Notes under the pieces: model-generated
The model's database searches: none
Seen by the model: only the letters and a program-made list of their open reading frames with translations
Told to the model about the DNA's origin: nothing
Program-made: the position numbers and the translations under genes
DNA from: a virus
DNA length: 64,000 bases
Virus genome (UHGV): UHGV-1384413
Reading direction: 5' to 3' (one strand)
Shown here: in pieces, positions 27,150 through 54,027 of the stretch
Numbering within the stretch: the first letter of the stretch is position 1
How the letters are laid out: each line of letters begins with the position of its first letter

Positions 27150-29273
27150 TCAGCAACCACAGCTTCCGTAGTGCTTAACCCGTTCTATAACTTCCGCTTG
27201 CTTACCTTTGTTGTAAGGTCGGGAGTTTGGACTGGACAGATACCCAGATACACGTCTAATCACACTGATCGTTCCATCTTCATGGTTTCCGCACTCTGGG
27301 CATACAAAGCCTTTAGCTGTTGCACTGAACTCACCAGAGAATCCACACTTAAGACATTTATCCACAGGTTGGTTAATACCAAAATACATAATGTGTTTAT
27401 ACCCGAAATCGACAAGGGATTCCAAAGCATCCAGGTTGTTTTTCAGGTTAGGTGTTTCTATGTATCCAATGTTGCCGCCAGAAGAGATCATAGCAAAACC
27501 TTCCTCATACTTCCACTTGTCAAAAGGTGAGCTATTGATCCACACGGGTTGGTGGAAACTGTTGGTAAGGTATTCGTGCTCGTGCTTCAACACTTCAGGA
27601 TATTCACGATCTAGACATGTTGCAGCCTTATAGCACAAGCTCTCTGAAGGAGTGCCGTACAAGCTGAATGCCAGACCACTTTCTTTTTTGTACCGATCAC
27701 AAGCGTCTTTCATGTGTTGAAGGATCCCAAGAGCTAAGGACTTGTCTCCCTCTCTGCCTAAAATCTGGCAGGTTTCATACACACCAATATACCCAATACT
27801 TATGGAAGCATACCCGTCATAGAAGAGTTTATCAATACTCTCTTCAGGATCCAGGCGAGCAAGGGCCCCTTCACACCACATGATGGGGTTCTGCCCTGCC
27901 TTTGTTCCTTTTAGACGGTTAACCCTTACAAGGTGAGCCTCGTATGCCAGATCCAAGTACTCGTCAAGAACTGCAAAGAAATCAACACCTTCCGTTTTAG
28001 CTTTTGCCGCAATCATTGGTAGGTTAAGGCTAACAACACCTAAGTTGAATCTGCCAAGGTATTTCTCCTCTCCTGTTTCCAAGTCATTGTATTTGCTAAG
28101 AAAACTCCGGCAACCCATGCTTGTGACATTACCTTCTGTTGAACCTGTCACTTTTCTATTTAGTGGTACAGATACGAAGTCAGGATAAATCCGCTCTGCA
28201 GAGCATTCCAGAGCTAATCGTTTCAAATCATAGTTAGGATCCCCGGGGTTCATGTTGATACCCTCCTCCAGGAAGAACAGCACCTTAGGGAACACAGGTG
28301 TGATACGTTCTTCACCAAGACCCATTTTGTGGACTTTCAGGTAGTTTTTGGTAATCATTCTACCAAAGATTGAGGTATCCAGTCCTAAACTTAATGTGAT
28401 GAATGGGGTTTGCCCGTTGACAGAAGTTAACGTATTGATTTGGTATAGCAAAGTTTGCATACTATCAAACACGTCTTTATCCGTCATTTGCATTGCAACA
28501 GTCTCAGCATCAGGCAACCATTGTTCCTGACAAAATTTAAGATTCTTCTCATAGGTTGCTTCAGCATACTGCGCCAGATAATGATCAATATGGCTCATGG
28601 TCTGACCACCATATTGAGCACTAGCTACTGCACTAGAGATTTGGCTGAGGATTGTTGTTGCAACCCCTATTGACTTCGGCTTACTGACATGGGCGTTGCC
28701 AATGTTGAATCCGTTTTCCAGCATATCCGGATAATTCACCAAACAACAGTTTGTTAACGGACTGATCAGATAGTCAAGATCATGCACATGGATGAATCCC
28801 TTGTTGTGCTCTTCGGAGACACGATCTGGCAGTATCTGTGTTGATGCAAGGTGTTTGCTAAGGATACCTGCAAGCAGGTCACGATGAGTATGTACATGAT
28901 TAGTGGGCTTATTTGCGTTTTCTTTTGTAAATTCATCACAAGTTCGATCCAAGAAGCCACTAATATCTGCAAGCAGTTTTCCACCTGCCTCTCTGTTATT
29001 ATCTCTTGTCTGTCTATACTGGATATATTCTCTGGCTGCACATTTTAAACCCATATCCATAAGAGCATCTTCAACAAGGATATGGATATTTTTTACAGAG
29101 ATCGTGCACTGGTCGGTTGGTAGATTGTTGGCAACAACTTCATTAACCGCACAAGCGATCCGGTAAGCTTCTTCTTCAGTATGCCCAGATTCAAGTAAGG
29201 CGGACTCTGCCGCCTTGATTACCTTAACTCCGTTATAGACCTCTTCTCTACCGTCCCGTTTTACAACTTTCAC
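27150..29273 (-). CDS. nrdD: anaerobic ribonucleoside-triphosphate reductase (class III)
   Basis: C-terminal glycyl-radical-like RRVSGYL motif and CLKCG...CPECG zinc site; GTG start with GGAGAG RBS. Confidence 0.85.
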   Translation of the reverse strand: MKVVKRDGREEVYNGVKVIKAAESALLESGHTEEEAYRIACAVNEVVANNLPTDQCTISVKNIHILVEDALMDMGLKCAAREYIQYRQTRDNNREAGGKLLADISGFLDRTCDEFTKENANKPTNHVHTHRDLLAGILSKHLASTQILPDRVSEEHNKGFIHVHDLDYLISPLTNCCLVNYPDMLENGFNIGNAHVSKPKSIGVATTILSQISSAVASAQYGGQTMSHIDHYLAQYAEATYEKNLKFCQEQWLPDAETVAMQMTDKDVFDSMQTLLYQINTLTSVNGQTPFITLSLGLDTSIFGRMITKNYLKVHKMGLGEERITPVFPKVLFFLEEGINMNPGDPNYDLKRLALECSAERIYPDFVSVPLNRKVTGSTEGNVTSMGCRSFLSKYNDLETGEEKYLGRFNLGVVSLNLPMIAAKAKTEGVDFFAVLDEYLDLAYEAHLVRVNRLKGTKAGQNPIMWCEGALARLDPEESIDKLFYDGYASISIGYIGVYETCQILGREGDKSLALGILQHMKDACDRYKKESGLAFSLYGTPSESLCYKAATCLDREYPEVLKHEHEYLTNSFHQPVWINSSPFDKWKYEEGFAMISSGGNIGYIETPNLKNNLDALESLVDFGYKHIMYFGINQPVDKCLKCGFSGEFSATAKGFVCPECGNHEDGTISVIRRVSGYLSSPNSRPYNKGKQAEVIERVKHYGSCGC

Positions 29274-42821: not shown

Positions 42822-43028
42822 TTATTCGAAGAAGTGAGTCCGAGGACAAGATCCAGCCTCGCCTTGTTTCACAAGCTCGTAGAGCTCACCTTGGCTTGTT
42901 TCATAAAGGCAAATACGTTTACCATTGTCCCGATATACATCTACAAGATACGCTGTTTCACCTGCAAACACGACACCACAGGCAAGGCATGCTGCCATGA
43001 ACAAAATTGCCAACAGAAAATCTTTCAT
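42822..43028 (-). CDS. small lipoprotein/secreted protein
   Basis: N-terminal hydrophobic segment with lipobox-like LAC|G. Confidence 0.45.
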   Translation of the reverse strand: MKDFLLAILFMAACLACGVVFAGETAYLVDVYRDNGKRICLYETSQGELYELVKQGEAGSCPRTHFFE

Positions 43029-43091
43029 GGTTAAACTCTCCTTAACATTTTACTGGGTAACAATACCACATCCATGTGGTCATGTCAATGA

Positions 43092-43562
43092 TTAATCTAG
43101 AACAACACCGCCTGACTTTTTAAACACCTCGATCAACTTTTCGATCTTCTGTTCGTGCTGACCATACCCTGCACCGGGGAGGCTTGCCCATCGGGATCTG
43201 CAAAGATGGATGGCCTGATGAATACGACCTTCATCAATATCATCGAGCGCCTTGCACTCACGGATCAATTGTAGTGCGATCTTATCCTGACTGGCAGGGC
43301 CAAAATCTGGTAATCCTAACTGTTTCATATAGTGTTTAGCAAACTTCTCCAAAACTTGGTAGCGCCCCGCAGCAGAGGAGGTAAGTTTAGCATTTAGCTT
43401 AACGTACACACCTGGATGCTTACTGTAATCGCTAAACAGCTTGCCACCGACTATGACATCATAGCCCCGATCCTTGGTAGGTTGTCTACCATTATCTGTA
43501 CCTTCTGAATATGCGATCATGTCCAAGAAAGCTTTTCGTTGAACATTTTTATCAAGTCTCAT
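43092..43562 (-). CDS. endolysin, lambda R-like lytic transglycosylase (GH24-like)
   Basis: QRKAFLDMIAYSEGTDNGRQ, GYDVIVGG, WASLPGAGYGQ blocks closely parallel lambda R as recalled. Confidence 0.85.
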   Translation of the reverse strand: MRLDKNVQRKAFLDMIAYSEGTDNGRQPTKDRGYDVIVGGKLFSDYSKHPGVYVKLNAKLTSSAAGRYQVLEKFAKHYMKQLGLPDFGPASQDKIALQLIRECKALDDIDEGRIHQAIHLCRSRWASLPGAGYGQHEQKIEKLIEVFKKSGGVVLD

Positions 43563-43686
43563 TTTTCATACTCTCCAATTTACTCATAACTAACCCGATC
43601 AACAACACTGCATAATGTGGTTATGTAGGTGCCAATTGAAAAACCATCATTCAATTGGCTACCGTTACCTACTAAACCTTCCTACA

Positions 43687-44970
43687 TCATTCCAGAACCT
43701 CCCAAGTGTCAGGGTTAACATTTCGGACGCAGATGCCGACAGGGAATTGGTAGTTGTTGTCTTCTGTCCTTGCTTGATATTTGAAGGTGACAAACTTGCC
43801 GATCATTTCCTGCATCCTGTCATAGCTACGCTCCTCGTGCGTGCCTTTCATCTTCATTTTAACAACGATACCTTCCTTGTCAACGCAGATAAGAACACCT
43901 TCATCATTCTTATCTTTCTCAACGTCAATAACTTTCACCTCAGCATCGTTGAACTTTTTCCATTTCAATGCTTCAGATGTTCGCTGACCATATTCATATT
44001 TACCGCAGAAGTTACGCATGATAGTACCTTCATATCCTTCGGACATGAATACACCAACAGATTCTTCGCAATGATCAACTGTGTACGCAAGCTCTGCGTC
44101 AACAACCTTGATATGGTCAAGCATCAGGGTGGTAATGGTATCTTCTGCATCCATAAGATCCTTGCATCGTCCAGATTCTGTTTCTGGATCCCACCATACC
44201 TTGTCACTAGGGATGTCGAAAATATGATACTCTAAGTCATAGCTACAGTACCCTCCGTAACGCAAATCATCACGAATAGGCTCAACATCAACAGGAATAT
44301 CTACCTTATTGAAGTTTTTGTATGTTGATAAGCCTGCCTTAATTGCGGCATGACGGCGTTTTTTATCTGCCTCGTAGTCTTTATCGATCTCGGCCTGAAT
44401 CTCTTCCTGTGTGCGCCACCGTTTAGCAAGAGACACTATTTTCTGCAGAGGCAGACCATGAATATAGATCTCTCCGTCGAGCTGTTTAATCCCGGTGGTG
44501 AAGTGGAAAGAACGAAGTTGCTCCAGAAGCTTTCCTTGAATAGGGTAGGACTTATTACCACGGGAAATAAATTTAGGCTCACCGTTTTGGAAAACAACCA
44601 GTAGACGAAGGCCATCTAATTTACGCAAAATCCAGCAAGGTAATTTAAGTGCCTTTCCACGCTTCAGGTAGTCATGCACCAACATGGGTAAAAGGTCAAC
44701 ACCCTGCTCGCAATCTTCCATATTTTCAACATATCCCAGACGGACTTGTTTTTCCCACTTACTGATCGCTTCCAGCTCAGCCTGTTGCTCAGCTGTAGTT
44801 TCATTGGCACGACCCACGTTCTTAGGTGTGCAGATCGTCTCTTTGTATTGCAGTTTACCATCAAGCTTGCCAAACTCTACAATAACCTTATCACCATCCG
44901 TGAATACTTTCCACTGCTGGTAGCTGCCATCTTTGTTCAGTGCGTACAGTGTTGTTTTGATCTGATGCAT
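43687..44970 (-). CDS. ATP-dependent DNA ligase
   Basis: Motif I KLDGLR (KxDGxR), motif IV-like EGYEGTIMR, motif V-like LKWKKF. Confidence 0.7.
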   Translation of the reverse strand: MHQIKTTLYALNKDGSYQQWKVFTDGDKVIVEFGKLDGKLQYKETICTPKNVGRANETTAEQQAELEAISKWEKQVRLGYVENMEDCEQGVDLLPMLVHDYLKRGKALKLPCWILRKLDGLRLLVVFQNGEPKFISRGNKSYPIQGKLLEQLRSFHFTTGIKQLDGEIYIHGLPLQKIVSLAKRWRTQEEIQAEIDKDYEADKKRRHAAIKAGLSTYKNFNKVDIPVDVEPIRDDLRYGGYCSYDLEYHIFDIPSDKVWWDPETESGRCKDLMDAEDTITTLMLDHIKVVDAELAYTVDHCEESVGVFMSEGYEGTIMRNFCGKYEYGQRTSEALKWKKFNDAEVKVIDVEKDKNDEGVLICVDKEGIVVKMKMKGTHEERSYDRMQEMIGKFVTFKYQARTEDNNYQFPVGICVRNVNPDTWEVLE

Positions 44971-45239
44971 TACTCAGCCTCTTCCTTAAAAATTTTAAAC
45001 ATCTCTTCTTTGCTCATTACCAACCAGTCTCCCATAAAGTCAACTAACCAATCCCCTTGGTACAAGACCAGGTTACCAAACGGCTCGACAAGCTCACACA
45101 TGCGAAGAATATCTCTGGTCCGAACAGGTGACGGTGTAAACACACCTGTATCAATCCACCGTTGTAGATCAGATACTGATGAAGAGCTTCCGTCAAACTG
45201 GTGTGCTTCTACAGGTTTAGCAAGATTAAATAACGGCAT
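44970..45239 (-). CDS. hypothetical protein (89 aa)
   Basis: ORF in coupled array. Confidence 0.45.
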   Translation of the reverse strand: MPLFNLAKPVEAHQFDGSSSSVSDLQRWIDTGVFTPSPVRTRDILRMCELVEPFGNLVLYQGDWLVDFMGDWLVMSKEEMFKIFKEEAE

Positions 45240-45534
45240 TGCAGTCCTCCTTCTCTAATAAGTCTTTTATCGGGTAAACAAGCAGGTGCGGATCGTAATA
45301 ATTTATAGTTTTATTCTGCCACACTATGAACTTAATTACAACTAAATTTACCACATCTTTATCTCCATGCAGTCCAACACACAGATTTGTCCATATTTTG
45401 TGGTTGAATACTTTGCTGTCGATGTAGATCTTAGTGTCAAACTTATCCTCTATCCTACCTATAAGTTTAACCAATTCTTTCATCTGATCCCCAAACACAG
45501 CATCGTTTTCAAGATCTCTGGAGTGCTTGTACAT
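45226..45534 (-). CDS. hypothetical protein (102 aa)
   Basis: ORF-track ORF. Confidence 0.45.
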   Translation of the reverse strand: MYKHSRDLENDAVFGDQMKELVKLIGRIEDKFDTKIYIDSKVFNHKIWTNLCVGLHGDKDVVNLVVIKFIVWQNKTINYYDPHLLVYPIKDLLEKEDCNAVI

Positions 45535-45574
45535 AACTTTCTACCTCACTTGCATACTTTCCTAAACAAGTAAA

Positions 45575-45598
45575 GCCGGGATCGCCCCGGCTATGTTA
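45575..45598 (-). terminator. putative rho-independent terminator
   Basis: GCCGGG-GCGATC-CCGGC hairpin followed by T-rich tract on minus strand. Confidence 0.5.
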
Positions 45599-46312
45599 TT
45601 AAATATATTCTGTTACATCCTTGAAGCTTGAAGGCTTCATAATCTTACCTTTACTGTCGAGGAATATGATAACTTTATTTCCGTTGTAGAATTCTTCTTT
45701 AGCAACAAAACCTTCATAGCGACCATCAAAGCGTCGCTCAAGATCTTTAATCTCCAACTCGATAAGTTGTTCAGCAGGCATATCTGCACTGGCACCGTGT
45801 GAATACCGCAGATGGTTGACGCGTGCAAACTTGCTGTCATTAGATTTTAGAACCTTCCGCATCATCCCGCACACATCACCGCGAAGCTGGAACAGCAAAG
45901 CTGTTGACAACTCTGCTAAGCGGTAAGCAGACGCTCTTTGCTTAGAGGTATTTTTCGCAGCGATCAGTGTATCATAAAATTCACCGATCTTAAACTTAAG
46001 ACCTCGCGGATTATCAAACAGGTTTGACCACTTTTCATGGTTATCGTTAACAAGATAAGCGGCATAACTTGTGACAACGTGAAGATCGCAGGCCTCTTTT
46101 AGGAGATGATCCCCACCATCACCTTTCTCCAACTCTTCCAAAACTTCATTGAACTCTTCCTCAATGAAACTCAGCTGAAGTTCGAATGGTGTGTATGATT
46201 TTTTCACTTTAGCTGCTACACGGTTCCAATTTTCCACCCAGTTGGCAGACCAAAGGTAGTTTTCAGGCTGAGACAGTTTTTCCAAGTTGTCAATCAGTTT
46301 AGTATTCAGCAT
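45599..46312 (-). CDS. MazG-like nucleotide pyrophosphohydrolase candidate
   Basis: EEEFNEVLEELE...EACD fits the EExxE...ExxD MazG pattern. Confidence 0.35.
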   Translation of the reverse strand: MLNTKLIDNLEKLSQPENYLWSANWVENWNRVAAKVKKSYTPFELQLSFIEEEFNEVLEELEKGDGGDHLLKEACDLHVVTSYAAYLVNDNHEKWSNLFDNPRGLKFKIGEFYDTLIAAKNTSKQRASAYRLAELSTALLFQLRGDVCGMMRKVLKSNDSKFARVNHLRYSHGASADMPAEQLIELEIKDLERRFDGRYEGFVAKEEFYNGNKVIIFLDSKGKIMKPSSFKDVTEYI

Positions 46313-46326
46313 TAAAAGGCCTCCGC

Positions 46327-47088
46327 TTACAGTTCCATAAAGTTTTCTACGATGTCAATGAATGTTTTATCAGAGAAAGCGTCAACAGCCCCGTTAAACC
46401 AAACTGGGATGCCGCGATCCTCATACTGGTAAATGTCACTACGTGAAATGCCATTCTCCCCTAAATGCTGTGAGTCGTATTTGTTAACGATCAGCAGTTT
46501 GGTCCCCTTATTACAGGCAGGGAATAGCTCCCAGTTAAAATTGATAACTGTGTTGGAGCACCCTATAAGGATAACCATATCATTGCTCGTCAGAGAAGTC
46601 AACAGGTCATACATGTCTGTATACTTTGGAGCTACTTCTCCGAAGAACACGACATTAGGCTTAACCCAAGTATACTTGCTTGCATCTACCTCAGAGTATC
46701 CAATGTCTTTAATGACGTTACTCCCTTCATCATCCTCGTAGACTATTTCTGGCAAATATCCGTGGACATGTAAAATATCTTCATGTTTTACACCAGCACG
46801 CTCCAGCAAATCATCTACATTGGTTGTCAGGTTGATCACGCGACCAGACCAGCGGGAATACCATTCAGCGATCCGGAGATGTGCAAGGTTAGGATCAACA
46901 CTGCCCAGAGCTACACGCCGTGCATTGTAAAAGTCATGAACCTTATAGTAGTTCTTGGCAAAGGTGTGGATGTTACACACCTCATCGATGCTGAAATTCT
47001 CCCACATTGCAGTGCCACCAGATCGGAAAGTTGGGATACCAGATTCAGCGCTCAAACCAGCACCGGAGATAATGATCAGTCGTCGCAT
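46327..47088 (-). CDS. Sir2-family (sirtuin-like) NAD-dependent protein lacking zinc-ribbon cysteines
   Basis: GAGLSAESGIPTFRS, FYNARR, TTNVDDLLERAG, HVHG, VVFFGE blocks match sirtuin catalytic core. Confidence 0.7.
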   Translation of the reverse strand: MRRLIIISGAGLSAESGIPTFRSGGTAMWENFSIDEVCNIHTFAKNYYKVHDFYNARRVALGSVDPNLAHLRIAEWYSRWSGRVINLTTNVDDLLERAGVKHEDILHVHGYLPEIVYEDDEGSNVIKDIGYSEVDASKYTWVKPNVVFFGEVAPKYTDMYDLLTSLTSNDMVILIGCSNTVINFNWELFPACNKGTKLLIVNKYDSQHLGENGISRSDIYQYEDRGIPVWFNGAVDAFSDKTFIDIVENFMEL

Positions 47089-47096
47089 AAGTGTCC

Positions 47097-47447
47097 TCAG
47101 TAGATGTTTTGTTTAATCTCTATTCCAAACTTTTTAAACGAGTCAGCAGCAAGCATGAATTTACGAGCAGCTGATGGGTTAGAAGTATGCACGAAAATCT
47201 TCACGTTGTCAACTACAGGAGGCTTACCAAATATAAATTTTTCCTCCAGCATAGATAGGCAATCGTACCCTTCAAATACCTCTCCAAGGTCGTTGTCCAT
47301 GTGCCACTCAGAAACGCGCCTGTAGAGCTTTCCCTTATCGTTAATAAAATCCATAAACTCAGAGGAATTCTTTAGCCAAAGAGCATCTGGGAGCCCATAA
47401 TTTGACGGATCTCTCAAGTCATCCAGCCACACAATCAACTTCTTCAT
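47097..47447 (-). CDS. hypothetical protein (116 aa)
   Basis: ORF between Sir2-like and Rnl-like genes. Confidence 0.5.
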   Translation of the reverse strand: MKKLIVWLDDLRDPSNYGLPDALWLKNSSEFMDFINDKGKLYRRVSEWHMDNDLGEVFEGYDCLSMLEEKFIFGKPPVVDNVKIFVHTSNPSAARKFMLAADSFKKFGIEIKQNIY

Positions 47448-48358
47448 TGCATATAGTCCTCGTTGTGGAAATAGTAGTCAAGTATCTCACGACGTTCTTG
47501 CTCCAGGAGGCAGTTCCACACATCTTCTGTGTAATTGCTACGAATGAAGTTTACCATGCCATAAAACTCTTCGTCAACACGTTTAAAGATATCATCATCC
47601 CAAATCTTCCAAGCTTTACCCCTCATTACGGCCTTCCGTGCCAAATAGTATGGAGACTTGATCTTCAGCTGCAAATCATAAGGGTAGTAAGGCTTACGAA
47701 TCATATACCCTTCACCTCTTGTTTCTGCAGCTAATTCTTTTGCATAGCTGAACGGAATTTCACGCACAGTGTGAGGACGTTTTGCACCAAGGTATTTGGC
47801 AATCCCATCTAAAGCTGCTTCTGGTAGCATTATTCCAGAATCATTATATCTGCAACCTATCAAATATGCGCCATGATCTTCCTGAACAATATGCGGATCT
47901 GAAGGGTGGCAAATTTCAAACATGAATGTCATGTTTTCATGGCCCATAACCCTCTTGATAAGATCTAAATTACCACATTGCTCCTGGATTGTTTCTTTTG
48001 CGAGGTTACAATATGGAGAATCAAGAGACCCGGTTGTTGAGAACAATAGTTCACCTTTATGAGATGATACCACACCAAGGAATCCGTTCTTTTTCTCTAC
48101 CGCCGTCACAAGTTTATTGTCAGGCAGGTTGGTGGAATTTTCTCCCAAGTTAAACACTTTTGTGAAGGGCCATGCCACAACATTTCCTTCATTACCGACA
48201 ACAATGCCTCGGCACTCCAGCAAACGAGGAGACAAATGCCATAAATTGTTGTAGAATACTTTTCTGGCATATTTATAGATCTTTAACCCAAGATCCGGGT
48301 AATATCTGCTGGTTACAAGACCTTTGTCAACTAGGTCGTCTGCATTAAAATACTTCAT
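47444..48358 (-). CDS. RNA ligase-like nucleotidyltransferase (Rnl family candidate)
   Basis: KKNGF (KxNG motif I variant as in tRNA ligases); divergent from polynucleotide kinase gene. Confidence 0.5.
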   Translation of the reverse strand: MKYFNADDLVDKGLVTSRYYPDLGLKIYKYARKVFYNNLWHLSPRLLECRGIVVGNEGNVVAWPFTKVFNLGENSTNLPDNKLVTAVEKKNGFLGVVSSHKGELLFSTTGSLDSPYCNLAKETIQEQCGNLDLIKRVMGHENMTFMFEICHPSDPHIVQEDHGAYLIGCRYNDSGIMLPEAALDGIAKYLGAKRPHTVREIPFSYAKELAAETRGEGYMIRKPYYPYDLQLKIKSPYYLARKAVMRGKAWKIWDDDIFKRVDEEFYGMVNFIRSNYTEDVWNCLLEQERREILDYYFHNEDYMQ

Positions 48359-48424
48359 TATACATTCCTCATTTGTTATTTTGTCCCTTTATCCTGCCAC
48401 ACAAATAACTTGGTGTCAACACTT

Positions 48425-48455
48425 GAAATTAACAAAACAGTTAGGTATACTATCA
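48425..48455 (+). promoter_or_regulatory. sigma70-like promoter (TTGAAA-17-TATACT) in divergent intergenic region
   Basis: Hexamers upstream of kinase gene. Confidence 0.4.
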
Positions 48456-48479
48456 TTAAAATTAAAACGGAGAGTTACT

Positions 48480-48890
48480 ATGTCTAAAATGCTATATATC
48501 GTGCGTGGTCTACCAGGGTCTGGCAAATCAACACTGGCAAATGCGCTATCTTTAGAAGGTCTGTATCCACATTTTGAGAACGATATGTTCTGGTACGACG
48601 ATGACGGCAATTACAATTGGGATGCAAGTAAAGTAACACTTGCAGCAAAATGGTGCAAAGATAACGTAGAAGATATGATGCGTATGGGCTACGACCGTAT
48701 CGTGGTAAGTAATACGTTTACAAAAGAAAAATATGTGCAAGAATATATTGACATGGCGATCAGTCATGGATATAGTTATACCGTGATCGTGGTTGAAAAC
48801 CGCCATGGTAATAAAAGCATTCATGATGTTCCAGACAGGGTTGTGGATCGTATGGAACGCCAGCTTAAAAACTGCATTAAACTTAAATGA
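48480..48890 (+). CDS. polynucleotide 5'-kinase-like P-loop protein
   Basis: N-terminal YIVRGLPGSGKSTLA Walker A typical of Pnk kinase domains; ACGGAGAG RBS. Confidence 0.6.
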   Translation: MSKMLYIVRGLPGSGKSTLANALSLEGLYPHFENDMFWYDDDGNYNWDASKVTLAAKWCKDNVEDMMRMGYDRIVVSNTFTKEKYVQEYIDMAISHGYSYTVIVVENRHGNKSIHDVPDRVVDRMERQLKNCIKLK

Positions 48891-48897
48891 GGAATGT

Positions 48898-49452
48898 ATG
48901 AAATACTTTGTAACAAGCGACACACACTTTCTCCACCAGCGGGTAATGGAGTTCGACTCATGTCAAAAACACAGATCTCAGTATGATCACAATCTTGACA
49001 GTATGAATGCGGGAATCATCACCAAGTGGAACTCTGTTGTGTCACCTGCAGACACTGTGTTTCACTTGGGGGATATTGCGTGCACTAATGATAAGAATAT
49101 CAACAAATTGCTTCCAGATGTTCTAAATATGTTGAACGGACATATTATTCTTGTTCGTGGTAACCATGACACAAGGACGACTGTCAGAATTATGAAAGAG
49201 TTCGGTCATGAGGTTGTAGATTATTACGAGCTTCGCCACAACAAGAATTTGATCTGTATGAGCCATTACCAGTTTGCAAAGTGGAACAGAAAGCCTCACG
49301 GATCAGTCCAACTGTTCGGTCATGCTCACGGAACCACACAGCAGTTGTTTGGCAGGCAGTTTGATGTCGGTTGGGATGTGTGGGGGAGACTCTTACCATT
49401 AGAAGAGGCATACCGTATTGCAATGAGTCTTGCTATTGACAGCGGGGAGTAA
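48898..49452 (+). CDS. calcineurin-like metallophosphoesterase
   Basis: SDTHF, GDIA and GNHD motifs; GAGGA RBS. Confidence 0.7.
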   Translation: MKYFVTSDTHFLHQRVMEFDSCQKHRSQYDHNLDSMNAGIITKWNSVVSPADTVFHLGDIACTNDKNINKLLPDVLNMLNGHIILVRGNHDTRTTVRIMKEFGHEVVDYYELRHNKNLICMSHYQFAKWNRKPHGSVQLFGHAHGTTQQLFGRQFDVGWDVWGRLLPLEEAYRIAMSLAIDSGE

Positions 49453-49499
49453 TCCCTGCTATTTTAAAGAAAATTGCCACACAAGGAGAATCAGGAGAT

Positions 49500-49850
49500 A
49501 TGAAAGATGGGGATAAGCTGCTATATCTTAAAGTCCCCCTTGAAATACTGTCTATGTCAAAAGTTTTGAATGACACAACTGGGGAGGTTGTTGTTCTTGA
49601 CTTATATGACAAGATCGTATACTGCTACCTGCACAACTGGTATAAGCTTGGAGAAAATTCACGCTTCACACCCAGCACAAGGAAAATTGCAGCAGATGTT
49701 GGGATAAAGAAAACAAAAGCAGCAGCGTGCGTTAAAACTTTAGAATGTGCAGGAGTGGTTGAAATATCCACACAAGGGAGAGGTAAAAGATGCACATTTT
49801 CCAAAGTTTTGCCACCAGAAGAAGTTATTCGAATGTCAACAACTGGTTAG
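49500..49850 (+). CDS. small DNA-binding protein (winged-helix/HTH-like), candidate iteron-binding protein
   Basis: TPSTRKIAADVGIKKTKAAACVKTLECAGVV resembles an HTH; immediately upstream of iteron array. Confidence 0.45.
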   Translation: MKDGDKLLYLKVPLEILSMSKVLNDTTGEVVVLDLYDKIVYCYLHNWYKLGENSRFTPSTRKIAADVGIKKTKAAACVKTLECAGVVEISTQGRGKRCTFSKVLPPEEVIRMSTTG

Positions 49851-49923
49851 ACCAGTAAAAACTTAAACATCTGTACTATAAGGATTTGTATGTTTTATGT
49901 TCACTCTGGAACAGAGGTTAGTA

Positions 49924-50007
49924 ACTGTCCGTGATACGGACACTACTGTCCGTCACGCGGACACATCTGCCCGTAGTACGGACACTAACTGTCCGTGATA
50001 CGGACAC
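49924..50007. repeat. four tandem palindromic iterons (ACTGTCCGT-N3-ACGGACAC) at 21-22 bp spacing
   Basis: Copies start at 49924, 49945, 49966, 49988; each has dyad GTCCGT/ACGGAC. Confidence 0.8.
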
Positions 50008-50150
50008 ATAAAGAATATAACTAAAATAACTAAATAATAAAAATAAAAGATCTAGCACTTATGGTACTAAAGTACATATACTTAACTTATGTAGAATATA
50101 CTAGATCCTAAGTACCATGTTTTAAATTTATTACTTATTACTTATTATGG
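50008..50150. other. AT-rich tract with short direct repeats (candidate DNA unwinding element)
   Basis: ATAACTAAA and TTACTTATT repeats and a GGTACT...AGTACC inverted repeat directly after iterons. Confidence 0.5.
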
Positions 50151-50154
50151 GTAG

Positions 50155-50400
50155 TGTCGGCCCTTCATTGGCACTCGCCTACGAGGGGCGAGATGCCGGG
50201 CCTCCGTAGTGCACACAATAACAGAAGTGCATACATGCAGGACTGTTAACATGTGTGGGAGCGAAGCGATAGCGCAGGCCAAAGGCCGAGCACTAATGTG
50301 GATCACCGACGAAAGCTTGCCAGCGCCGGAAGGAGTCGGTTGAGAGCCTCCCGCGCGAGTTCTGATAAAGTTTATGTGTGGAAACTGACAAGAAGGCTCC
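50155..50400. other. GC-rich ORF-free island (candidate structured RNA or DNA element)
   Basis: Composition contrast with AT-rich flanks; no ORF with RBS. Confidence 0.3.
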
Positions 50401-50517
50401 TAAATCGCTCCACAGCTATATAAACTATACCAAGTAAGGCAATCGCACCAGTTTGATAGAAAAGCTCGTTACAAAGCGATACAGTGAGTTTTTCTATAAC
50501 TTGAAGAGGAGGCTGCT

Positions 50518-51096
50518 ATGAGTTCACGCAAAGATGCCCGTGAAAAGATTGCAAAACGTTATCAGGATGAAGAACAGATGGAGAAAACTTTCAAGTGGAA
50601 GCCAGGTTTCCAGCGTAATCATTCTAACGCCCGTGATCGTAAGCATCCTGATAAGTGGCTAACACCGCCAAATGATGGCATGCAGGTTGGTGATGAGAAG
50701 GAGCTATCACCTGGAAAAGATGGCAACTACATTCGCACTAAGGACGCCAGTCCAAAGGATGACAGCTATCTTGTAGATAAGGTTCTTGATGGTATTGATG
50801 TAGATGTTGACACTGCACGAAACCTTTTTCTTGGTTGGTATCGTACAGGGTTTTTCGACATCAAGGCTATTCGTCGTGTTTGTGATATTAAAAAGTCTGC
50901 ATATGATGACGACTCGTTACATCGCACCCTGAGACAATATTCAGAAAGATATGGTCATCCGGTTATCACTCTTGACGATGTTAACGAAGTGATGTATCAT
51001 GCAGAGGTTGTTGCAGGCAGATTTGGTGATGCATATCTTGATATCCTTTCTGCAAACGATGAGGTAATGTTGAATAAGATTTACTATGAACGTTGA
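50518..51096 (+). CDS. hypothetical protein (192 aa)
   Basis: ATG with GAAGAGGAGG RBS. Confidence 0.6.
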   Translation: MSSRKDAREKIAKRYQDEEQMEKTFKWKPGFQRNHSNARDRKHPDKWLTPPNDGMQVGDEKELSPGKDGNYIRTKDASPKDDSYLVDKVLDGIDVDVDTARNLFLGWYRTGFFDIKAIRRVCDIKKSAYDDDSLHRTLRQYSERYGHPVITLDDVNEVMYHAEVVAGRFGDAYLDILSANDEVMLNKIYYER

Positions 51097-51106
51097 GGAG
51101 AGCTTA

Positions 51107-51295
51107 ATGAACAATCCGGTAGCAAAGAACTGTAATAAGTTCAACAAGTCTGCAATTCACACCGACAGGAAAAAGAGCTGGTCACCGGACATTGACGAGG
51201 AGCTTGAGAATTACTTTGAAGATCTAGTCACCAATGCAGGTGAGGTTGCGATTAAAGAATACGCAGACAGGAAGGATAAGGCCGGAATCTGTTGA
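51107..51295 (+). CDS. hypothetical protein (62 aa)
   Basis: ATG at 51107 with GAGGAG RBS. Confidence 0.45.
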   Translation: MNNPVAKNCNKFNKSAIHTDRKKSWSPDIDEELENYFEDLVTNAGEVAIKEYADRKDKAGIC

Positions 51296-51371
51296 CAAAA
51301 ATAATGTTACCTGATAAGATCTGCAATATGATGTGATACAATTTTAACTTACGAGGTCTACAGGTAATGCT

Positions 51372-51614
51372 ATGTTTAAGGTTAAGCTCGTTTTCCGTTC
51401 CATGAATGAGGATTATTTAGAAGATGAAGGTGAATTTCGTGCACTAGATGATGCAATAGATTTTGCCAACGACTTAGCTTGTATGAATACTGGTTATGGT
51501 TTATGTTGTTGGGATGGTGGTGTTCAGATTGGTGATAGCAAGATCTTCTACTTCTACCCTGAGCCCGATAACAAACAAATTAAGTATGTTTTATTTATTT
51601 GTGCTTTACAATAA
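51372..51614 (+). CDS. hypothetical protein (80 aa)
   Basis: ORF-track ORF. Confidence 0.5.
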   Translation: MFKVKLVFRSMNEDYLEDEGEFRALDDAIDFANDLACMNTGYGLCCWDGGVQIGDSKIFYFYPEPDNKQIKYVLFICALQ

Positions 51615-51639
51615 GGTTGTTTTCGTGTATCATGATGAA

Positions 51640-51900
51640 TATCCAATTTAAAGATGAGTTTGATGGCTTTATCTCCGGATGCTTTGAAACAGGGTTCGGA
51701 GAAGACTGAGTTCCCCTTAGAGGGCTTGATAGTGCACCACACTTAAAATGGTAGGGGCAGCCAGCACATGACGATGTGACCCCAGCCAACCTGTAATAAG
51801 GTCGAGCCAGAGCGCGGTAATGGGTATCTGGTAACCCACTTGTTGGGTCTTGCTGGTCCAGGACGCTGGGCAAGTCGCAGGGAATACCACCCTGCGGCGA
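51640..51900. other. GC-rich ORF-poor island (candidate structured ncRNA)
   Basis: Overlapping Pro/Gly-rich minus-strand ORFs in all frames typical of non-coding GC-rich sequence. Confidence 0.3.
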
Positions 51901-51903
51901 ACT

Positions 51904-51933
51904 TGACAATCAGTATTTGCCGTGATAAAATCC
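51904..51933 (+). promoter_or_regulatory. sigma70-like promoter (TTGACA ... GATAAAAT)
   Basis: Consensus -35 and extended -10 upstream of gene at 51960. Confidence 0.5.
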
Positions 51934-51959
51934 ACCTATCACGTGATAATGGAGGAAAC

Positions 51960-52298
51960 ATGGCGGATACAACTAAAAAGCGTCGCCGTAGAGGCAGACC
52001 TCTGAAAGAGGAGTCCAACGCCATTCAGCTAGAGAAGAACATTCTTGATATGAAGGAATCTTTTATAGCGATGGTTCCAGAAGCTCACAAAGTTTTAAGA
52101 GAGCTGATGTTGGACCCGAAAACCAAACAAAATATTCGTCAAAGCATTGCAGAGTATGTTCTTGATAAGGCAGACCGAATGCAGGAAGAATATGATGAGA
52201 TGTTTGGTGAAGAGGAAGAGGTGGTAGTAGAAGAGGCTGAAAAACCAGCACCTTTTATGCCATTTACCACAGAAATACAGCCTGTTGGCAATAGTTAA
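51960..52298 (+). CDS. basic/acidic DNA-binding-like protein; possible terminase small subunit
   Basis: N-terminal KKRRRRGRPLK basic stretch; GGAGGAAACATG RBS; upstream of terL region. Confidence 0.3.
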   Translation: MADTTKKRRRRGRPLKEESNAIQLEKNILDMKESFIAMVPEAHKVLRELMLDPKTKQNIRQSIAEYVLDKADRMQEEYDEMFGEEEEVVVEEAEKPAPFMPFTTEIQPVGNS

Positions 52299-52394
52299 AA
52301 TATTTTCTTGACAAACTTTGCTTAACAGTGTAATATTGTAAACATGGTCTCCCACCTTTTCTGGCGGCTCAGGTGTAAAAGAAAGCCACCCAGT

Positions 52395-52469
52395 GCCCTG
52401 TTAGCTTAGTGGATAAAGCAGCGGCCTTCTAAGCCGTTGACACTGGTTCGAGTCCAGTACGGGGTGCCA
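52395..52469 (+). tRNA. tRNA-Arg (anticodon TCT)
   Basis: Manual cloverleaf: acceptor, D, anticodon loop CTTCTAA, T-loop TTCGAGT, CCA encoded. Confidence 0.8.
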
Positions 52470-52473
52470 AATT

Positions 52474-52560
52474 GGGGAGTTATCCCGTAGAGGTAGCGGT
52501 GTAGACTGTAAATCTATTGTCATTGCGACTCGGGTGGTTCGACTCCACCACTCCCCACCA
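52474..52560 (+). tRNA. tRNA-Tyr (anticodon GTA), long variable arm
   Basis: Acceptor GGGGAGT/ACTCCCC, anticodon loop CTGTAAA, T-loop TTCGACT, CCA encoded. Confidence 0.75.
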
Positions 52561-52674
52561 AATTTACATTTTTAAATGCATAAATTATACAGATAATGAC
52601 ATTGATATTTATCGTCGTTTATACTAGTCACTAACTGCTCGAAAATCAGTGTCATTATCAGTGTAATTTATAAA

Positions 52675-52765
52675 GGAGAGTAGGGAGCAATGGTGCTCAA
52701 GCGGTCTTGAAAACCGTCCCATTGAGGACGACTTGATGATGGTTCGATTCCATTACTCTCCGCCA
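52675..52765 (+). tRNA. tRNA-Ser (anticodon TGA), long variable arm
   Basis: Acceptor GGAGAGT/ACTCTCC, anticodon loop CTTGAAA, 20-nt variable arm, CCA encoded. Confidence 0.8.
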
Positions 52766-52863
52766 TATTGTTAACCTTGTAATTAAGCGAAAGCCGGAAG
52801 CAGAACCGGATTATCAAATGTTACAGTCGTCATCGCCGACTAGCAACATGGTTAACATTATTC

Positions 52864-52960
52864 GCTAGGTAAGCCCTTTGGCAAGGGCGAGGATTTTTAA
52901 TCCTGAAAATAGACGAGGTAGTCGTTGAATACATAGGTGGTTCGATTCCATCACCTAGCA
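52864..52960 (+). tRNA. atypical tRNA-like gene (possible anticodon TTT) with about 30-nt variable region
   Basis: Perfect 7-bp acceptor stem, D-arm and T-arm; anticodon stem only 4 bp; no CCA encoded. Confidence 0.45.
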
Positions 52961-52966
52961 CCTTTT

Positions 52967-53042
52967 GCTGATGTAGCACAATTGGCAGTGCAATTGATTT
53001 GTAATCAATAGGTTGCAGGTTCAAGTCCTGCCATCAGCACCA
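52967..53042 (+). tRNA. tRNA-Thr (anticodon TGT)
   Basis: Canonical cloverleaf, anticodon loop TTTGTAA, CCA encoded. Confidence 0.85.
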
Positions 53043-53043
53043 T

Positions 53044-53118
53044 GGCCCTGTAGCTGGAAGGTTCAAGCAAGCGACTCATAATCGCCAGACGGTGGTTCAA
53101 TTCCACCCAGGGCCACCA
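53044..53118 (+). tRNA. tRNA-Met/Ile2 (anticodon CAT)
   Basis: Acceptor GGCCCTG/CAGGGCC, anticodon loop CTCATAA, T-loop TTCAATT, CCA encoded. Confidence 0.75.
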
Positions 53119-53129
53119 AATAATAAATA

Positions 53130-53206
53130 CTCCGCGTAGCTCAGCTTGGTAGAGCGCCTGATTTGGGATCAGGAGGTCGAGTGTTCGAATCACTCCGTGG
53201 AGACCA
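53130..53206 (+). tRNA. tRNA-Pro (anticodon TGG)
   Basis: D-arm TAGCTCAGCTTGGTAGAGC, anticodon loop TTTGGGA, T-loop TTCGAAT, CCA encoded. Confidence 0.8.
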
Positions 53207-53252
53207 CCTTTAGTTATACTTTAAATATATACACACAAAAGGAACCTTTAAA

Positions 53253-53522
53253 ATGTATACACTTAAAATTGTAGAACGTGTAAATCCAACCCATACTTTA
53301 GATCTTCGTGACGATTTCAACCCTCTTGCTGTAAATCTTCGAGAGTCGTATCATGAACTAAGCTGCGATGCAGTTGTGGTCTTCTTTGAAGACAACTCTG
53401 AAGGGGCAGTAGCTTGTGTTGTTGATAGCGAGCAGAAGTTTTATATTTACAGAGATGTGGATGCTTACTTGATGAATGAGAATGCGGTTACTGTCAGAAT
53501 CATCCACCGAGTGCCTCGATAA
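53253..53522 (+). CDS. hypothetical protein (89 aa)
   Basis: ATG with AAAAGGAACC RBS. Confidence 0.5.
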   Translation: MYTLKIVERVNPTHTLDLRDDFNPLAVNLRESYHELSCDAVVVFFEDNSEGAVACVVDSEQKFYIYRDVDAYLMNENAVTVRIIHRVPR

Positions 53523-53576
53523 GTATTAGTCTCCTTTTAGTTAGTTTCGATCTATTTAGGTTACTCAATTTTAACC

Positions 53577-53613
53577 CGCCCCGTTAGCTGTATAGCTGCG
53601 GGGTTTTTTCGTT
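53577..53613 (+). terminator. rho-independent terminator
   Basis: CCCCG...CGGGG extended hairpin followed by TTTTTTCG. Confidence 0.6.
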
Positions 53614-53628
53614 TCTGGAGCCTTAAAA

Positions 53629-54027
53629 ATGATTTCAGTTTTAACATTGATGAGTAAACACAGAGGGATCATAAAAGGTTTAGTTTTTGCAGCGGCTATA
53701 GGCATGGCTTATCTTGGGGCCGTGTATTGGTTTAACTCTAAGCTCAATGATGCTTATCAAGAAGGTGTGTTAGCAACAGAGTTAAAGTGGGAACGGATCC
53801 TTGACCAACAACAAAAGCAGGCCGACAAAATTAAAATGGGCCACGCAGAGGAGGTTAAAAACCTTGAAAAATCTCTTTCTGATCTACAGGATAAATTAAA
53901 TATGGCTGAGAAGGCAGGTAAAGAAAAGCAGATTATCTACCTCCAATCTCCTGAAGGTAAGAAGTCAACACTTCCTGATCAGCTAATAGATATTTATAAT
54001 GAGAGTATCAATCAGGAGGTTCGATGA
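53629..54027 (+). CDS. i-spanin-like protein (Rz-like: N-terminal TM plus coiled coil)
   Basis: Hydrophobic GLVFAAAIGMAYLGAVYWF followed by charged coiled-coil-like sequence; overlaps next gene start. Confidence 0.5.
   Translation: MISVLTLMSKHRGIIKGLVFAAAIGMAYLGAVYWFNSKLNDAYQEGVLATELKWERILDQQQKQADKIKMGHAEEVKNLEKSLSDLQDKLNMAEKAGKEKQIIYLQSPEGKKSTLPDQLIDIYNESINQEVR

Follow-up and report, generated by a model that had tools for sequence, protein, structure and literature searches.

A six-gene block in rV5-like phages is best read as one RNA-break repair module

Do the six genes that occupy positions 45599-49452 of the viral genome UHGV-1384413 (the window, i.e. the whole stretch of 64,000 nucleotides that was analysed) form one system, or are they a collection of genes acting independently against host defences? 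A sequence-only reading had described the cluster as a dedicated module of host-takeover and counter-defence functions. The ORF map of the window confirms that the cluster is real: six intact ORFs fill the interval exactly and are non-overlapping, save for 4 nt shared between the start of one gene and the stop of its neighbour. The features are as follows.

45574-45592, minus strand: GC-rich, intrinsic-terminator-like hairpin, immediately following the MazG-like stop codon
45599-46312, minus strand: MazG-like all-alpha NTP pyrophosphohydrolase, 237 aa
46327-47088, minus strand: Sir2, class III (CobB/SIRT5-like) sirtuin by sequence, 253 aa (PF02146, 94.8 bits)
47097-47447, minus strand: cREC domain protein, 116 aa (PF20274 cREC_REC, 53.3 bits against a cutoff of 27)
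47444-48358, minus strand: Rnl1-type ATP-dependent RNA ligase, 304 aa (PF09511, 55.3 bits)
48359-48479, no strand assigned: divergent intergenic region, with promoters and a ribosome binding site (RBS) ahead of the kinase gene
48480-48890, plus strand: stand-alone P-loop kinase, 136 aa (AAA_33, 41 bits)
48898-49452, plus strand: calcineurin-type metallophosphoesterase, 184 aa (Metallophos, 25.8 bits against a cutoff of 21.5; phrog_547 at 4e-50)

The window belongs to Vequintavirus, with 99.5% identity to phage ECP32, and is also close to rV5. A database search found 122 phage records that carry the same 5 kb with at least 90% identity, and purifying selection is strong on all genes of the block (dN/dS 0.00-0.24), so that chance juxtaposition can be dismissed. 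The block is found in all database records having Vequintavirus-type head genes, all of its genes recur throughout Vequintavirinae, and every gene save an in-cluster Sir2 recurs in Stephanstirmvirinae; it is therefore a core-like block and not a variable island. Variation among relatives, about which the sequence-only reading had asked, appears only at greater depth, where Sir2 is relocated (it has moved out of the cluster in phi92/phAPEC8 relatives, and lies more than 20 kb away in Phapecoctavirus) and the ligase and kinase are apparently missing in two relatives. All six proteins retain their catalytic motifs, and the family assignments all survive HMM or structure checks. A tRNA gene cluster is located 3 kb downstream of the block.

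The genes for Rnl, cREC, Sir2 and the MazG-like protein lie on one strand, 4-14 nt apart or overlapping (the start of cREC overlaps the stop of Rnl by 4 nt, and its own stop is free of overlap), and this four-gene unit is bounded by the hairpin at 45574-45592. The hairpin has an 8-bp stem with six GC pairs and a T-rich tail, is detected on both strands, and corresponds in position to an ARNold terminator in the annotation of phage Gotham. On the other side of a 121-nt gap, the genes for the kinase and phosphoesterase run away from the minus-strand unit. Sigma-70-like promoters (48423-48456, plus strand) and the RBS GGAGAG precede the kinase gene, the true start of which is the ATG at 48480, and the Gotham annotation carries a PhagePromoter promoter at the same place. 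For the minus-strand operon, no sigma-70 match was found in the intergenic region 48359-48479.

A profile built from five ligase orthologues matches T4 Rnl1 (2c5u, 2.8e-7) and not the 2'-PO4-dependent Trl1, and the motif residues K89 (KKNG), E148, E216, K232 and K234 are present. Assignment of the ligase as a T4 RnlA equivalog was rejected (39 bits against a cutoff of 242). The kinase, with its P-loop at G10-T18, is of polynucleotide-kinase type (PHROG polynucleotide kinase family, 3e-10) and carries no fused phosphatase domain, and the metallophosphoesterase has all five motifs of its family (DxH, GD, GNHD, H and GHxH). We surveyed neighbours within 8 kb at 70 viral loci with this Rnl type, all outside the rV5/phi92 lineage. 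A kinase homologue adjoins the ligase in 59 loci and a phosphoesterase homologue in 56, with kinase-ligase fusions in ten and a median gap of 223 nt between the genes. The kinase, metallophosphoesterase and Rnl1-like ligase are thus a portable core, found together in most of these loci. Within 8 kb, none of the 70 has a MazG-like, Sir2 or cREC gene, so the ligation pathway does not need those three, a point against one module. They are lineage-specific add-ons to the core, present in the rV5/phi92 supergroup only.

We consider it reasonably probable that the block is an RNA-break repair module of rV5-like phages. The data show what the genes are, how the operon is laid out, how far the block is conserved and which genes co-occur; what each enzyme does and what is acted on in vivo is inferred. 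The breaks envisaged are of the 2',3'-cyclic-phosphate/5'-OH kind in tRNA or other RNA, as would be left by metal-independent ribonucleases (e.g. anticodon nucleases). On paper, the core trio would jointly suffice to heal and seal such breaks: the small P-loop kinase would phosphorylate the 5'-OH, the calcineurin-type phosphoesterase, as presumed end-healing enzyme, would open and remove the 2',3'-cyclic or 3'-phosphate, and the Rnl1-type ligase would seal the ends. On the paradigm of T4 Pnkp/Rnl1 versus PrrC, the trio is a credible tool against RNA-cleaving defences, and to that extent the sequence-only reading stands. T4 Rnl1 seals 2'-OH/3'-OH ends, and the resemblance of the ligase to this enzyme rather than to Trl1 is a point against the module as explained here. 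A NAD+-linked side branch, formed by cREC and the zinc-less sirtuin, was predicted by Iyer et al. (Iyer, Burroughs, Anantharaman & Aravind 2022, Viruses 14:1977; PMC9503650), whose published comparative analysis gives this very neighbourhood the same repair reading: cREC would open cyclic phosphates, whether at the ends of RNA or in ADP-ribose>P, and a 2'-phosphate would then be taken off by the sirtuin through ADP-ribosyl transfer, as by Tpt1/KptA. The MazG-like enzyme is encoded in one transcription unit with cREC, Sir2 and the ligase, and of all the components it has the least certain part in repair. Against the repair reading, the tRNA-nicking Retron Eco2 remains protective against Vequintavirinae. 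Our searches of the literature on these gene families turned up neither biochemical nor genetic tests of the proteins.

The survey also bears on a different arrangement, in which only the kinase, phosphoesterase and ligase are RNA repair and the other three genes are there by inherited synteny in an early/middle nucleic-acid-metabolism region, with the sirtuin an ordinary deacylase (desuccinylase/deacetylase) of lysines in host or phage proteins and the MazG-like protein a dUTP/dNTP house-cleaning pyrophosphatase that feeds ThyX and protects replication. We regard this as unlikely, while leaving it an appreciable share of probability. The absence of Sir2, cREC and the MazG-like gene from all 70 unrelated loci speaks for it, as does DNA ligase, a frequent neighbour of this Rnl (30 of the 70), which shows the region to be devoted in general to nucleic-acid enzymes. 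Against it stands the Vequintavirus arrangement of four genes as one tight, terminator-bounded unit.

The protein that the sequence-only reading had left as an unknown small protein is cREC, a cyclic-phosphate-processing receiver. Six orthologues, ranging down to 39% identity, all keep its residues D9, D10, D51, N52, D53, H87, S89 and N90. At the viral locus L039, cREC is accompanied by an RNA ligase of another family (PF09414), together with a DUF2828/TROVE-like protein and a phosphoesterase, which links cREC to RNA repair independently. Acb1 is a 2H-fold anti-CBASS enzyme, and by analogy cREC, perhaps with the phosphoesterase, could act primarily as a phosphodiesterase on small molecules, cyclic or derived from ADP-ribose (immune second messengers, ADPr>P), instead of healing RNA ends. 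Such a role would fit the distant cREC loci, most of which carry no recognisable RNA ligase, and the unrelated viral contig L036, where PRPP synthetase and NamPT directly follow cREC, as they neighbour it in three phage groups. It would also fit two relatives (L016 and L020) that keep cREC, the phosphoesterase and the MazG-like gene and apparently lack the ligase and kinase, an observation that counts against one module as well but that comes from direct inspection of only 20 kb per contig. ADPr>P is allowed as a substrate by Iyer et al. too (PMC9503650). However, cREC overlaps the Rnl gene here and accompanies an RNA ligase in L039, and we judge a primary role in the cleavage of such small molecules highly improbable.

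Among solved structures, Sir2 matches E. coli CobB best (1s5p, 5e-21), and the NAD+ and catalytic motifs are intact (invariant G9AG, F21R22, Y54/R57, N90/D92 and H109). The zinc-binding Cys tetrad is lacking, with cysteines only at 38, 177 and 192, and scores against the CobB equivalog models are less than half of the cutoffs (121 vs 243 and 102 vs 320). Judged from these features it is a CobB/SIRT5-like class III sirtuin without the zinc cysteines, and its clade, which is phage-specific, is represented in over 1000 phage records. In favour of the deacylase of the synteny explanation are the Y..R acyl-carboxylate motif of class III, the retention of all deacylase residues and the best matches to CobB and SIRT5; against this, the zinc module of canonical deacylases is missing, and the Sir2 clade and cREC each adjoin other RNA-end-processing genes in unrelated phages (see also PMC9503650). 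For instance, in the T5-like phage N5 a Sir2-clade gene lies one gene away from a HAD_SAK_2 (PF18143) RNA-repair phosphatase, which counts for an independent link to RNA-end chemistry. The distant Sir2 of Phapecoctavirus counts against one module, no repair neighbour being recognisable there or in a KVP40-like vibriophage.

The sequence-only reading had instead supposed independent counter-defence genes, with the MazG-like protein directed against nucleotide alarmones or immune signals, Sir2 against NAD-based (Thoeris-type or NAD-depleting) immunity, and the RNA-repair trio separate. As is well established, diverse nucleotides can be hydrolysed by members of the MazG superfamily. The NAD-salvage genes for NamPT and PRPP synthetase lie beside the cluster in Mydovirus, Seunavirus and Stephanstirmvirinae, so NAD economy matters in this genomic region, but Vequintavirus itself lacks them. 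Moreover, sirtuins consume NAD+ and so cannot restore it, and this one is CobB-like, with no match to the PADLOC defence Sir2 models. Its family cannot be called a known anti-defence tool, since we know of no phage member with a demonstrated effect against Thoeris or NAD depletion. Many anti-defence genes are variable or fast-evolving, whereas these are core-like and under strong purifying selection, and the literature on these families gave no experiment favouring an anti-signalling role. We therefore hold this supposition to be improbable. The block is best read as one repair module and not as independent anti-signalling genes.

The weakest link in the repair module is the MazG-like gene, which has no independent tie to repair genes outside this phage lineage. 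Its family call holds: the protein has the EExxE...ExxD metal motif and N..K phosphate motif, and the Pfam models for PRA-PH and MazG recognise members of its family. The family is rare (167 representatives among 1.84 billion proteins) and has a conserved C-terminal alpha/beta tail (R198, K223, K226). The gene may be the phage's dUTPase-like house-cleaning enzyme, as the synteny explanation has it. Dimeric dUTPases come closest to it in fold, and the complete genome of the relative FV3 encodes ThyX and both aerobic and anaerobic RNRs, with no other dUTPase annotated and no tblastn match to E. coli Dut. In other genera it tracks DNA ligase, not RNA ligase, which counts against one module; in Seunavirus, Mydovirus and Stephanstirmvirinae it lies downstream of DNA ligase, 3-5 kb from the RNA ligase. 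On the other side, no family member matches the dimeric dUTPase Pfam model, and sequence profiles indicate HisE/MazG.

Among known systems, T4 Pnkp and Rnl1 repair tRNA to counter the PrrC anticodon nuclease, and share with the block a 5'-kinase, 3'-end healing and an Rnl1-branch ligase, T4 Rnl1 being the closest solved structure. In contrast to T4, the kinase here is a stand-alone protein of 136 aa without a HAD phosphatase domain, 3' healing is attributed to an enzyme of calcineurin type, the 304-aa ligase scores far below the RnlA equivalog cutoff, and T4 lacks the cREC, Sir2 and MazG-like genes. Bacterial Pnkp/Hen1 (Clostridium thermocellum) combines a P-loop kinase, a calcineurin-type 2',3'-phosphoesterase and an ATP-dependent ligase, the same enzymatic triad, but in one polypeptide where the block has three separate small proteins; the ligase here is Rnl1-like, and the Hen1 2'-O-methyltransferase is absent. 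Fungal and plant Trl1 (CPDase-kinase-ligase) with Tpt1/KptA supplies the logic proposed for the cREC/Sir2 branch, i.e. conversion of the cyclic phosphate to a 2'-phosphate followed by its NAD+-dependent removal (PMC9503650). The block has neither a 2H CPDase nor Tpt1, for which cREC and Sir2 would be putative stand-ins, and, unlike Trl1, it has a ligase matching T4 Rnl1 and a complete phosphoesterase route. With the CobB/SIRT5 deacylases, its best PDB and NCBIfam matches, Sir2 shares the Rossmann NAD+ motifs, catalytic His and Y-x-x-R, and differs in lacking the four zinc-binding cysteines and in its phage-specific clade. The MazG-like protein has its metal and phosphate motifs in common with MazG, HisE (PRA-PH) and dimeric dUTPases, but forms a family of its own with a tail absent from all three. 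The block as a whole is an already described system: its gene set is identical to type 2 of the sirtuin-centred phage RNA-repair neighbourhoods ("Escherichia phage V5 / Proteus phage Mydo"), comprising sirtuin, T4-like RNA ligase, cREC, nucleotide kinase, MazG-superfamily pyrophosphatase and calcineurin-like phosphoesterase, which a computational study of 2022 presented as a single predicted RNA-repair system that uses NAD+ (PMC9503650). To that description we add that the trio travels widely without the other three genes, that Sir2 exits the cluster in Stephanstirmvirinae, and that the MazG-like link is weak.

The window is assigned to an rV5-like myophage of the genus Vequintavirus on the basis of its close matches to Escherichia phage vB_EcoM-ECP32 and other phage records. 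With a 5-kb query spanning the block, 122 phage records match at 90% identity or more, 118 records have at least 80% of the query covered, and ECP32 is the top match (99.5%). The window is colinear with roughly 51.3-114.7 kb of the complete genome of the Vequintavirus FV3. The gene cluster at 45599-49452 that had been proposed by a sequence-only reading is real, as six ORFs fill the interval exactly:

45574-45592: GC-rich hairpin with T tail, directly after the MazG-like stop codon; an annotated terminator in phage Gotham
45599-46312, minus strand: MazG-like protein, 237 aa
46327-47088, minus strand: sirtuin (Sir2), 253 aa
47097-47447, minus strand: cREC protein, 116 aa; 4-nt overlap with the ligase stop
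47444-48358, minus strand: RNA ligase, 304 aa
48423-48456: sigma-70-like promoters, inside the 121-nt gap between the minus-strand genes and the kinase
48480-48890, plus strand: kinase, 136 aa
48898-49452, plus strand: metallophosphoesterase, 184 aa, followed by a gene for an HTH protein

Given the terminal hairpin and the gene layout, the ligase, cREC, Sir2 and MazG-like genes look like a single transcription unit. An Rfam scan of window positions 43000-54000 found nothing besides tRNAs. Two small minus-strand genes (44970-45534) separate the MazG-like gene from the DNA ligase gene; they encode proteins of 89 and 102 aa (phrog_14585 and phrog_7684), neither of which has a Pfam match. Both have homologues that accompany the cluster in Seunavirus and Mydovirus, that of the 102-aa protein upstream of the phosphoesterase and that of the 89-aa protein downstream of the DNA ligase.

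We consider that the block is probably a single module for the repair of RNA breaks, with NAD+ and cyclic-phosphate accessories specific to its lineage. The family calls made earlier for Sir2 and for the ligase, kinase and phosphatase hold, with PF02146, PF09511, AAA_33 and Metallophos all above their Pfam cutoffs. The RNA ligase scores 55.3 bits against PF09511 (cutoff 28.3) and carries nucleotidyltransferase motifs I, III, IV and V (K89, E148, E216, K232 and K234). A five-sequence ligase profile matches T4 Rnl1 (2c5u) at 2.8e-7 and gave no match to Trl1; the protein is not an equivalog of T4 RnlA (TIGR02308, 39.1 bits against 242). The kinase matches AAA_33 (41 bits, cutoff 27) and phrog_505 (polynucleotide kinase, 3e-10), and the calcineurin-like metallophosphoesterase (25.8 bits, cutoff 21.5) has all five metal-binding motifs (D8xH10, G58D59, G88NHD, H123 and G141HAH). 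Single-sequence searches of PDB with the ligase and the kinase returned nothing useful.

A scan of IMG/VR with the ligase profile found 302 relatives, of which the best 80 loci were analysed. Ten of these are of the rV5/phi92 type, and all ten encode cREC, the MazG-like protein, the kinase, the phosphoesterase and a DNA ligase, with Sir2 present in eight. Of the other 70, 59 encode the kinase and 56 the phosphoesterase, the median gap being 223 nt, and none has cREC, Sir2 or the MazG-like protein within 8 kb of the ligase. Where there are at least 3 kb on each side of the ligase, both healing enzymes are present in 32 of 41 loci. In ten of the viral contigs with the kinase (L075, L079-L081, L083, L087, L089 and L091-L093) kinase and ligase are fused in a single ORF, supporting direct functional coupling of the kinase with the Rnl1-like ligase. 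Since the trio recurs without the other three genes, it is self-contained and widely transferred; cREC, Sir2 and the MazG-like protein are add-ons of one phage lineage. The main alternative takes this further, in that RNA repair would be the business of the trio only and the remaining genes would be inherited synteny. We judge this rather unlikely.

The small protein that was previously left without a family is cREC (PF20274, cREC_REC, 53.3 bits against 27), and six orthologues all keep its receiver-like acidic residues D9, D10, D51 and D53. On one unrelated contig (L039) cREC lies between a phosphoesterase plus DUF2828/TROVE-like protein and a PF09414 RNA ligase; on another (L036) PRPP synthetase and NamPT follow directly after it. 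The whole neighbourhood has been described by Iyer, Burroughs, Anantharaman and Aravind (Viruses 2022, PMC9503650, section 3.7.3) as the second type of sirtuin-centred neighbourhood, that of "Escherichia phage V5 and Proteus phage Mydo". Its defining genes are those for a sirtuin, a T4-like ligase, cREC, a kinase and a MazG-like protein, a calcineurin-like phosphoesterase being optional; here all six genes lie within 3.9 kb. These authors proposed an NAD+-using RNA-repair system in which the sirtuin would resemble KptA/Tpt1 in acting on 2'-phosphates, and cyclic phosphates would be opened, or ADPr>P processed, by cREC or the phosphoesterase. The block is thus already known from comparative genomics and adds nothing beyond what is published for phage rV5. 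In the literature on these gene families and on RNA repair in Vequintavirinae, we found only comparative-genomics papers of the Aravind group from 2021 and 2022, and no later experiments. According to BASEL, Vequintavirinae show exceptional susceptibility to restriction-modification, and retron Eco2 gives protection against this subfamily; the block is not directly addressed by either result.

The sirtuin (PF02146, 94.8 bits against a cutoff of 24; E. coli CobB match at 5e-21) belongs to class III, like CobB and SIRT5. Four phage orthologues share G9AGLS, F21R22, N90, D92 and H109 without variation, and the Y54-x-x-R57 motif is likewise invariant; the NAD+-binding and catalytic residues are all kept, with T in place of Q in the TQNID motif. 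The four-Cys zinc-binding module is absent: none of the four orthologues has a Cys in the region aligned with the CobB zinc ribbon, the only cysteines of the sirtuin being at positions 38, 177 and 192. Scores against the CobB equivalog models of NCBIfam are less than half of the cutoffs (120.9 bits against 243, and 102.2 against 320). From its sequence, the protein could be a deacylase or something new. The Y..R pair of SIRT5 binds the acyl carboxylate, and we infer that the phage pair could equally hold phosphate. The phage Sir2 clade comprises 1014 phage records, including T5-like, phi92-like, Sugarlandvirus, KVP40-like and jumbo phages. An RNA-repair phosphatase (PF18143, HAD_SAK_2) lies one gene away from Sir2 in the T5-like phage N5, and in a KVP40-like vibriophage Sir2 has no such neighbour. 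A bolder reading, already proposed in silico in 2022, is that the zinc-less class III sirtuin would be an NAD+-dependent RNA 2'-phosphotransferase, rather than a deacylase, and cREC a metal-independent cyclic phosphodiesterase, which together would form a second, NAD+-consuming tRNA-repair route in rV5-like and T5-like phages. We regard this as quite improbable. If true, it would bring new enzymology and chemistry to both protein superfamilies; if false, what is left is an ordinary kinase/phosphatase/ligase repair set beside a deacylase and a nucleotide house-cleaning enzyme.

The suggestion that the block is a counter-defence cluster survives in part, for its RNA-repair core, and fails for Sir2 and the MazG-like protein as separate weapons against host signalling. 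The sirtuin is of the CobB-like class III, and none of the PADLOC Sir2 models (ThsA, DSR, SIR2-HerA and others) gave a family match at E <= 0.001. The six proteins were also considered as captured defence genes and rejected as such, as the PADLOC scan gave only two weak P-loop matches, to the kinase.

The MazG-like protein of the window scores 13.7 bits against a Pfam threshold of 21.3 (PF03819 MazG or PF01503 PRA-PH tested); orthologues that are 54-55% identical exceed the threshold (PRA-PH 26-27 bits, MazG 22-23 bits). Across the family, 43 of 63 members match PRA-PH and 15 match MazG. The EExxE ... ExxD metal-binding motif is present on a four-helix bundle. Sequence searches of PDB returned nothing with the single sequence or an 11-sequence profile, and only marginal HisE and MazG matches with a 63-sequence profile. 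The family is confined to the block's own phage lineage (299 records), elsewhere follows the DNA ligase, and showed no independent link to RNA repair outside that lineage. A serious rival to a role in RNA repair is a house-cleaning role as a putative dUTPase-like enzyme. The fold is like that of dimeric dUTPases, although no family member matches the dimeric dUTPase model (PF08761). FV3 has genes for ThyX and for ribonucleotide reductases of the aerobic and the anaerobic type, and no canonical trimeric dUTPase is annotated in, or was found by tblastn with E. coli Dut in, the FV3 genome or the window. Because FV3 lacks another dUTPase, the genomic context would permit dUTP/dUDP-specific hydrolysis by the MazG-like protein. 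The anaerobic reductase gene nrdD is an uninterrupted ORF of 707 aa in the window (27150-29273, minus strand); in FV3 an HNH homing-endonuclease gene divides it into two CDSs, and about 800 bp of FV3 are passed over in the megablast map at this place.

Within the genus, the block is not a variable accessory island, as every database record with Vequintavirus-type head genes also has it. A head-gene query retrieved, at 90% identity or more, 99 Escherichia, 18 "Campylobacter", 2 "Phage", 1 Shigella and 1 Vequintavirinae records, and the block query 100, 18, 2, 1 and 1 in the same categories, the same record set. The "Campylobacter phage" records (18-25 GenBank entries, MG0656xx, host C. jejuni) share 91-100% identity with genes of E. 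coli Vequintavirus and are probably mislabelled or contaminant assemblies. For ten genes in and around the block, dN/dS against four relatives is 0.00-0.24, the MazG-like gene being the most constrained; diversifying selection is rejected, with dN/dS at or below 0.24 in every gene. At greater depth, order and content change. In Seunavirus and Mydovirus the order, on one strand, is phosphoesterase-x-x-ligase-cREC-kinase-Sir2-DNA ligase-...-MazG-like. In Stephanstirmvirinae it is cREC-x-x-phosphoesterase-ligase-kinase-...-DNA ligase-x-MazG-like, and Sir2 is more than 20 kb away from the cluster, without a recognisable repair neighbour. Two IMG/VR relatives of roughly 150 kb, L016 (9995-14984) and L020 (9992-14040), retain cREC together with the phosphoesterase, DNA ligase and MazG-like genes; the RNA ligase and kinase were not seen at the locus, and these contigs are not among the matches of the ligase scan. 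Genes for NAD+ salvage (NamPT and PRPP synthetase) adjoin the cluster in Seunavirus, Mydovirus and Stephanstirmvirinae, and neither was found in the whole FV3 genome or the window. Their positions in the surveyed loci are as follows:

L002, 256-3328: NamPT/PRPP synthetase
L004, 5577-8124: NamPT/PRPP synthetase
L006, 4880-7578: NamPT/PRPP synthetase
L020, 5365-8301: NamPT/PRPP synthetase
L036, 10315-12643: NamPT/PRPP synthetase

The window also carries a tRNA-Lys(UUU)-like gene (52864-52962, plus strand) whose variable region holds an additional stem-loop about 30 nt long. It is tRNA-??? according to ARAGORN, the Rfam tRNA model gives 35.5 bits, and the predicted fold is a cloverleaf with one more hairpin (z -3.7). 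In the BASEL Vequintavirus RudolfGeigy the gene is listed as a 97-nt tRNA-Lys, and the FV3 RefSeq has no annotation for it. As tRNA-Lys(UUU) is the target of PrrC and PARIS, the product of this gene could be a decoy or a variant that resists the nuclease. Phage RNA repair is of practical relevance, since defences that cleave tRNA are now recognised as widespread and rV5-like phages are common candidates for therapy and biocontrol.

Compared with known systems, the ligase (304 aa) is shorter than T4 Rnl1 (RnlA, 374 aa), which has a C-terminal tRNA-specificity domain, and the kinase consists of the kinase domain only, whereas T4 Pnkp has a C-terminal HAD 3'-phosphatase. Were the sirtuin a 2'-phosphotransferase, it would be a functional analogue of Tpt1/KptA. 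The three predicted activities of the trio are those of bacterial Pnkp, here divided among separate proteins.
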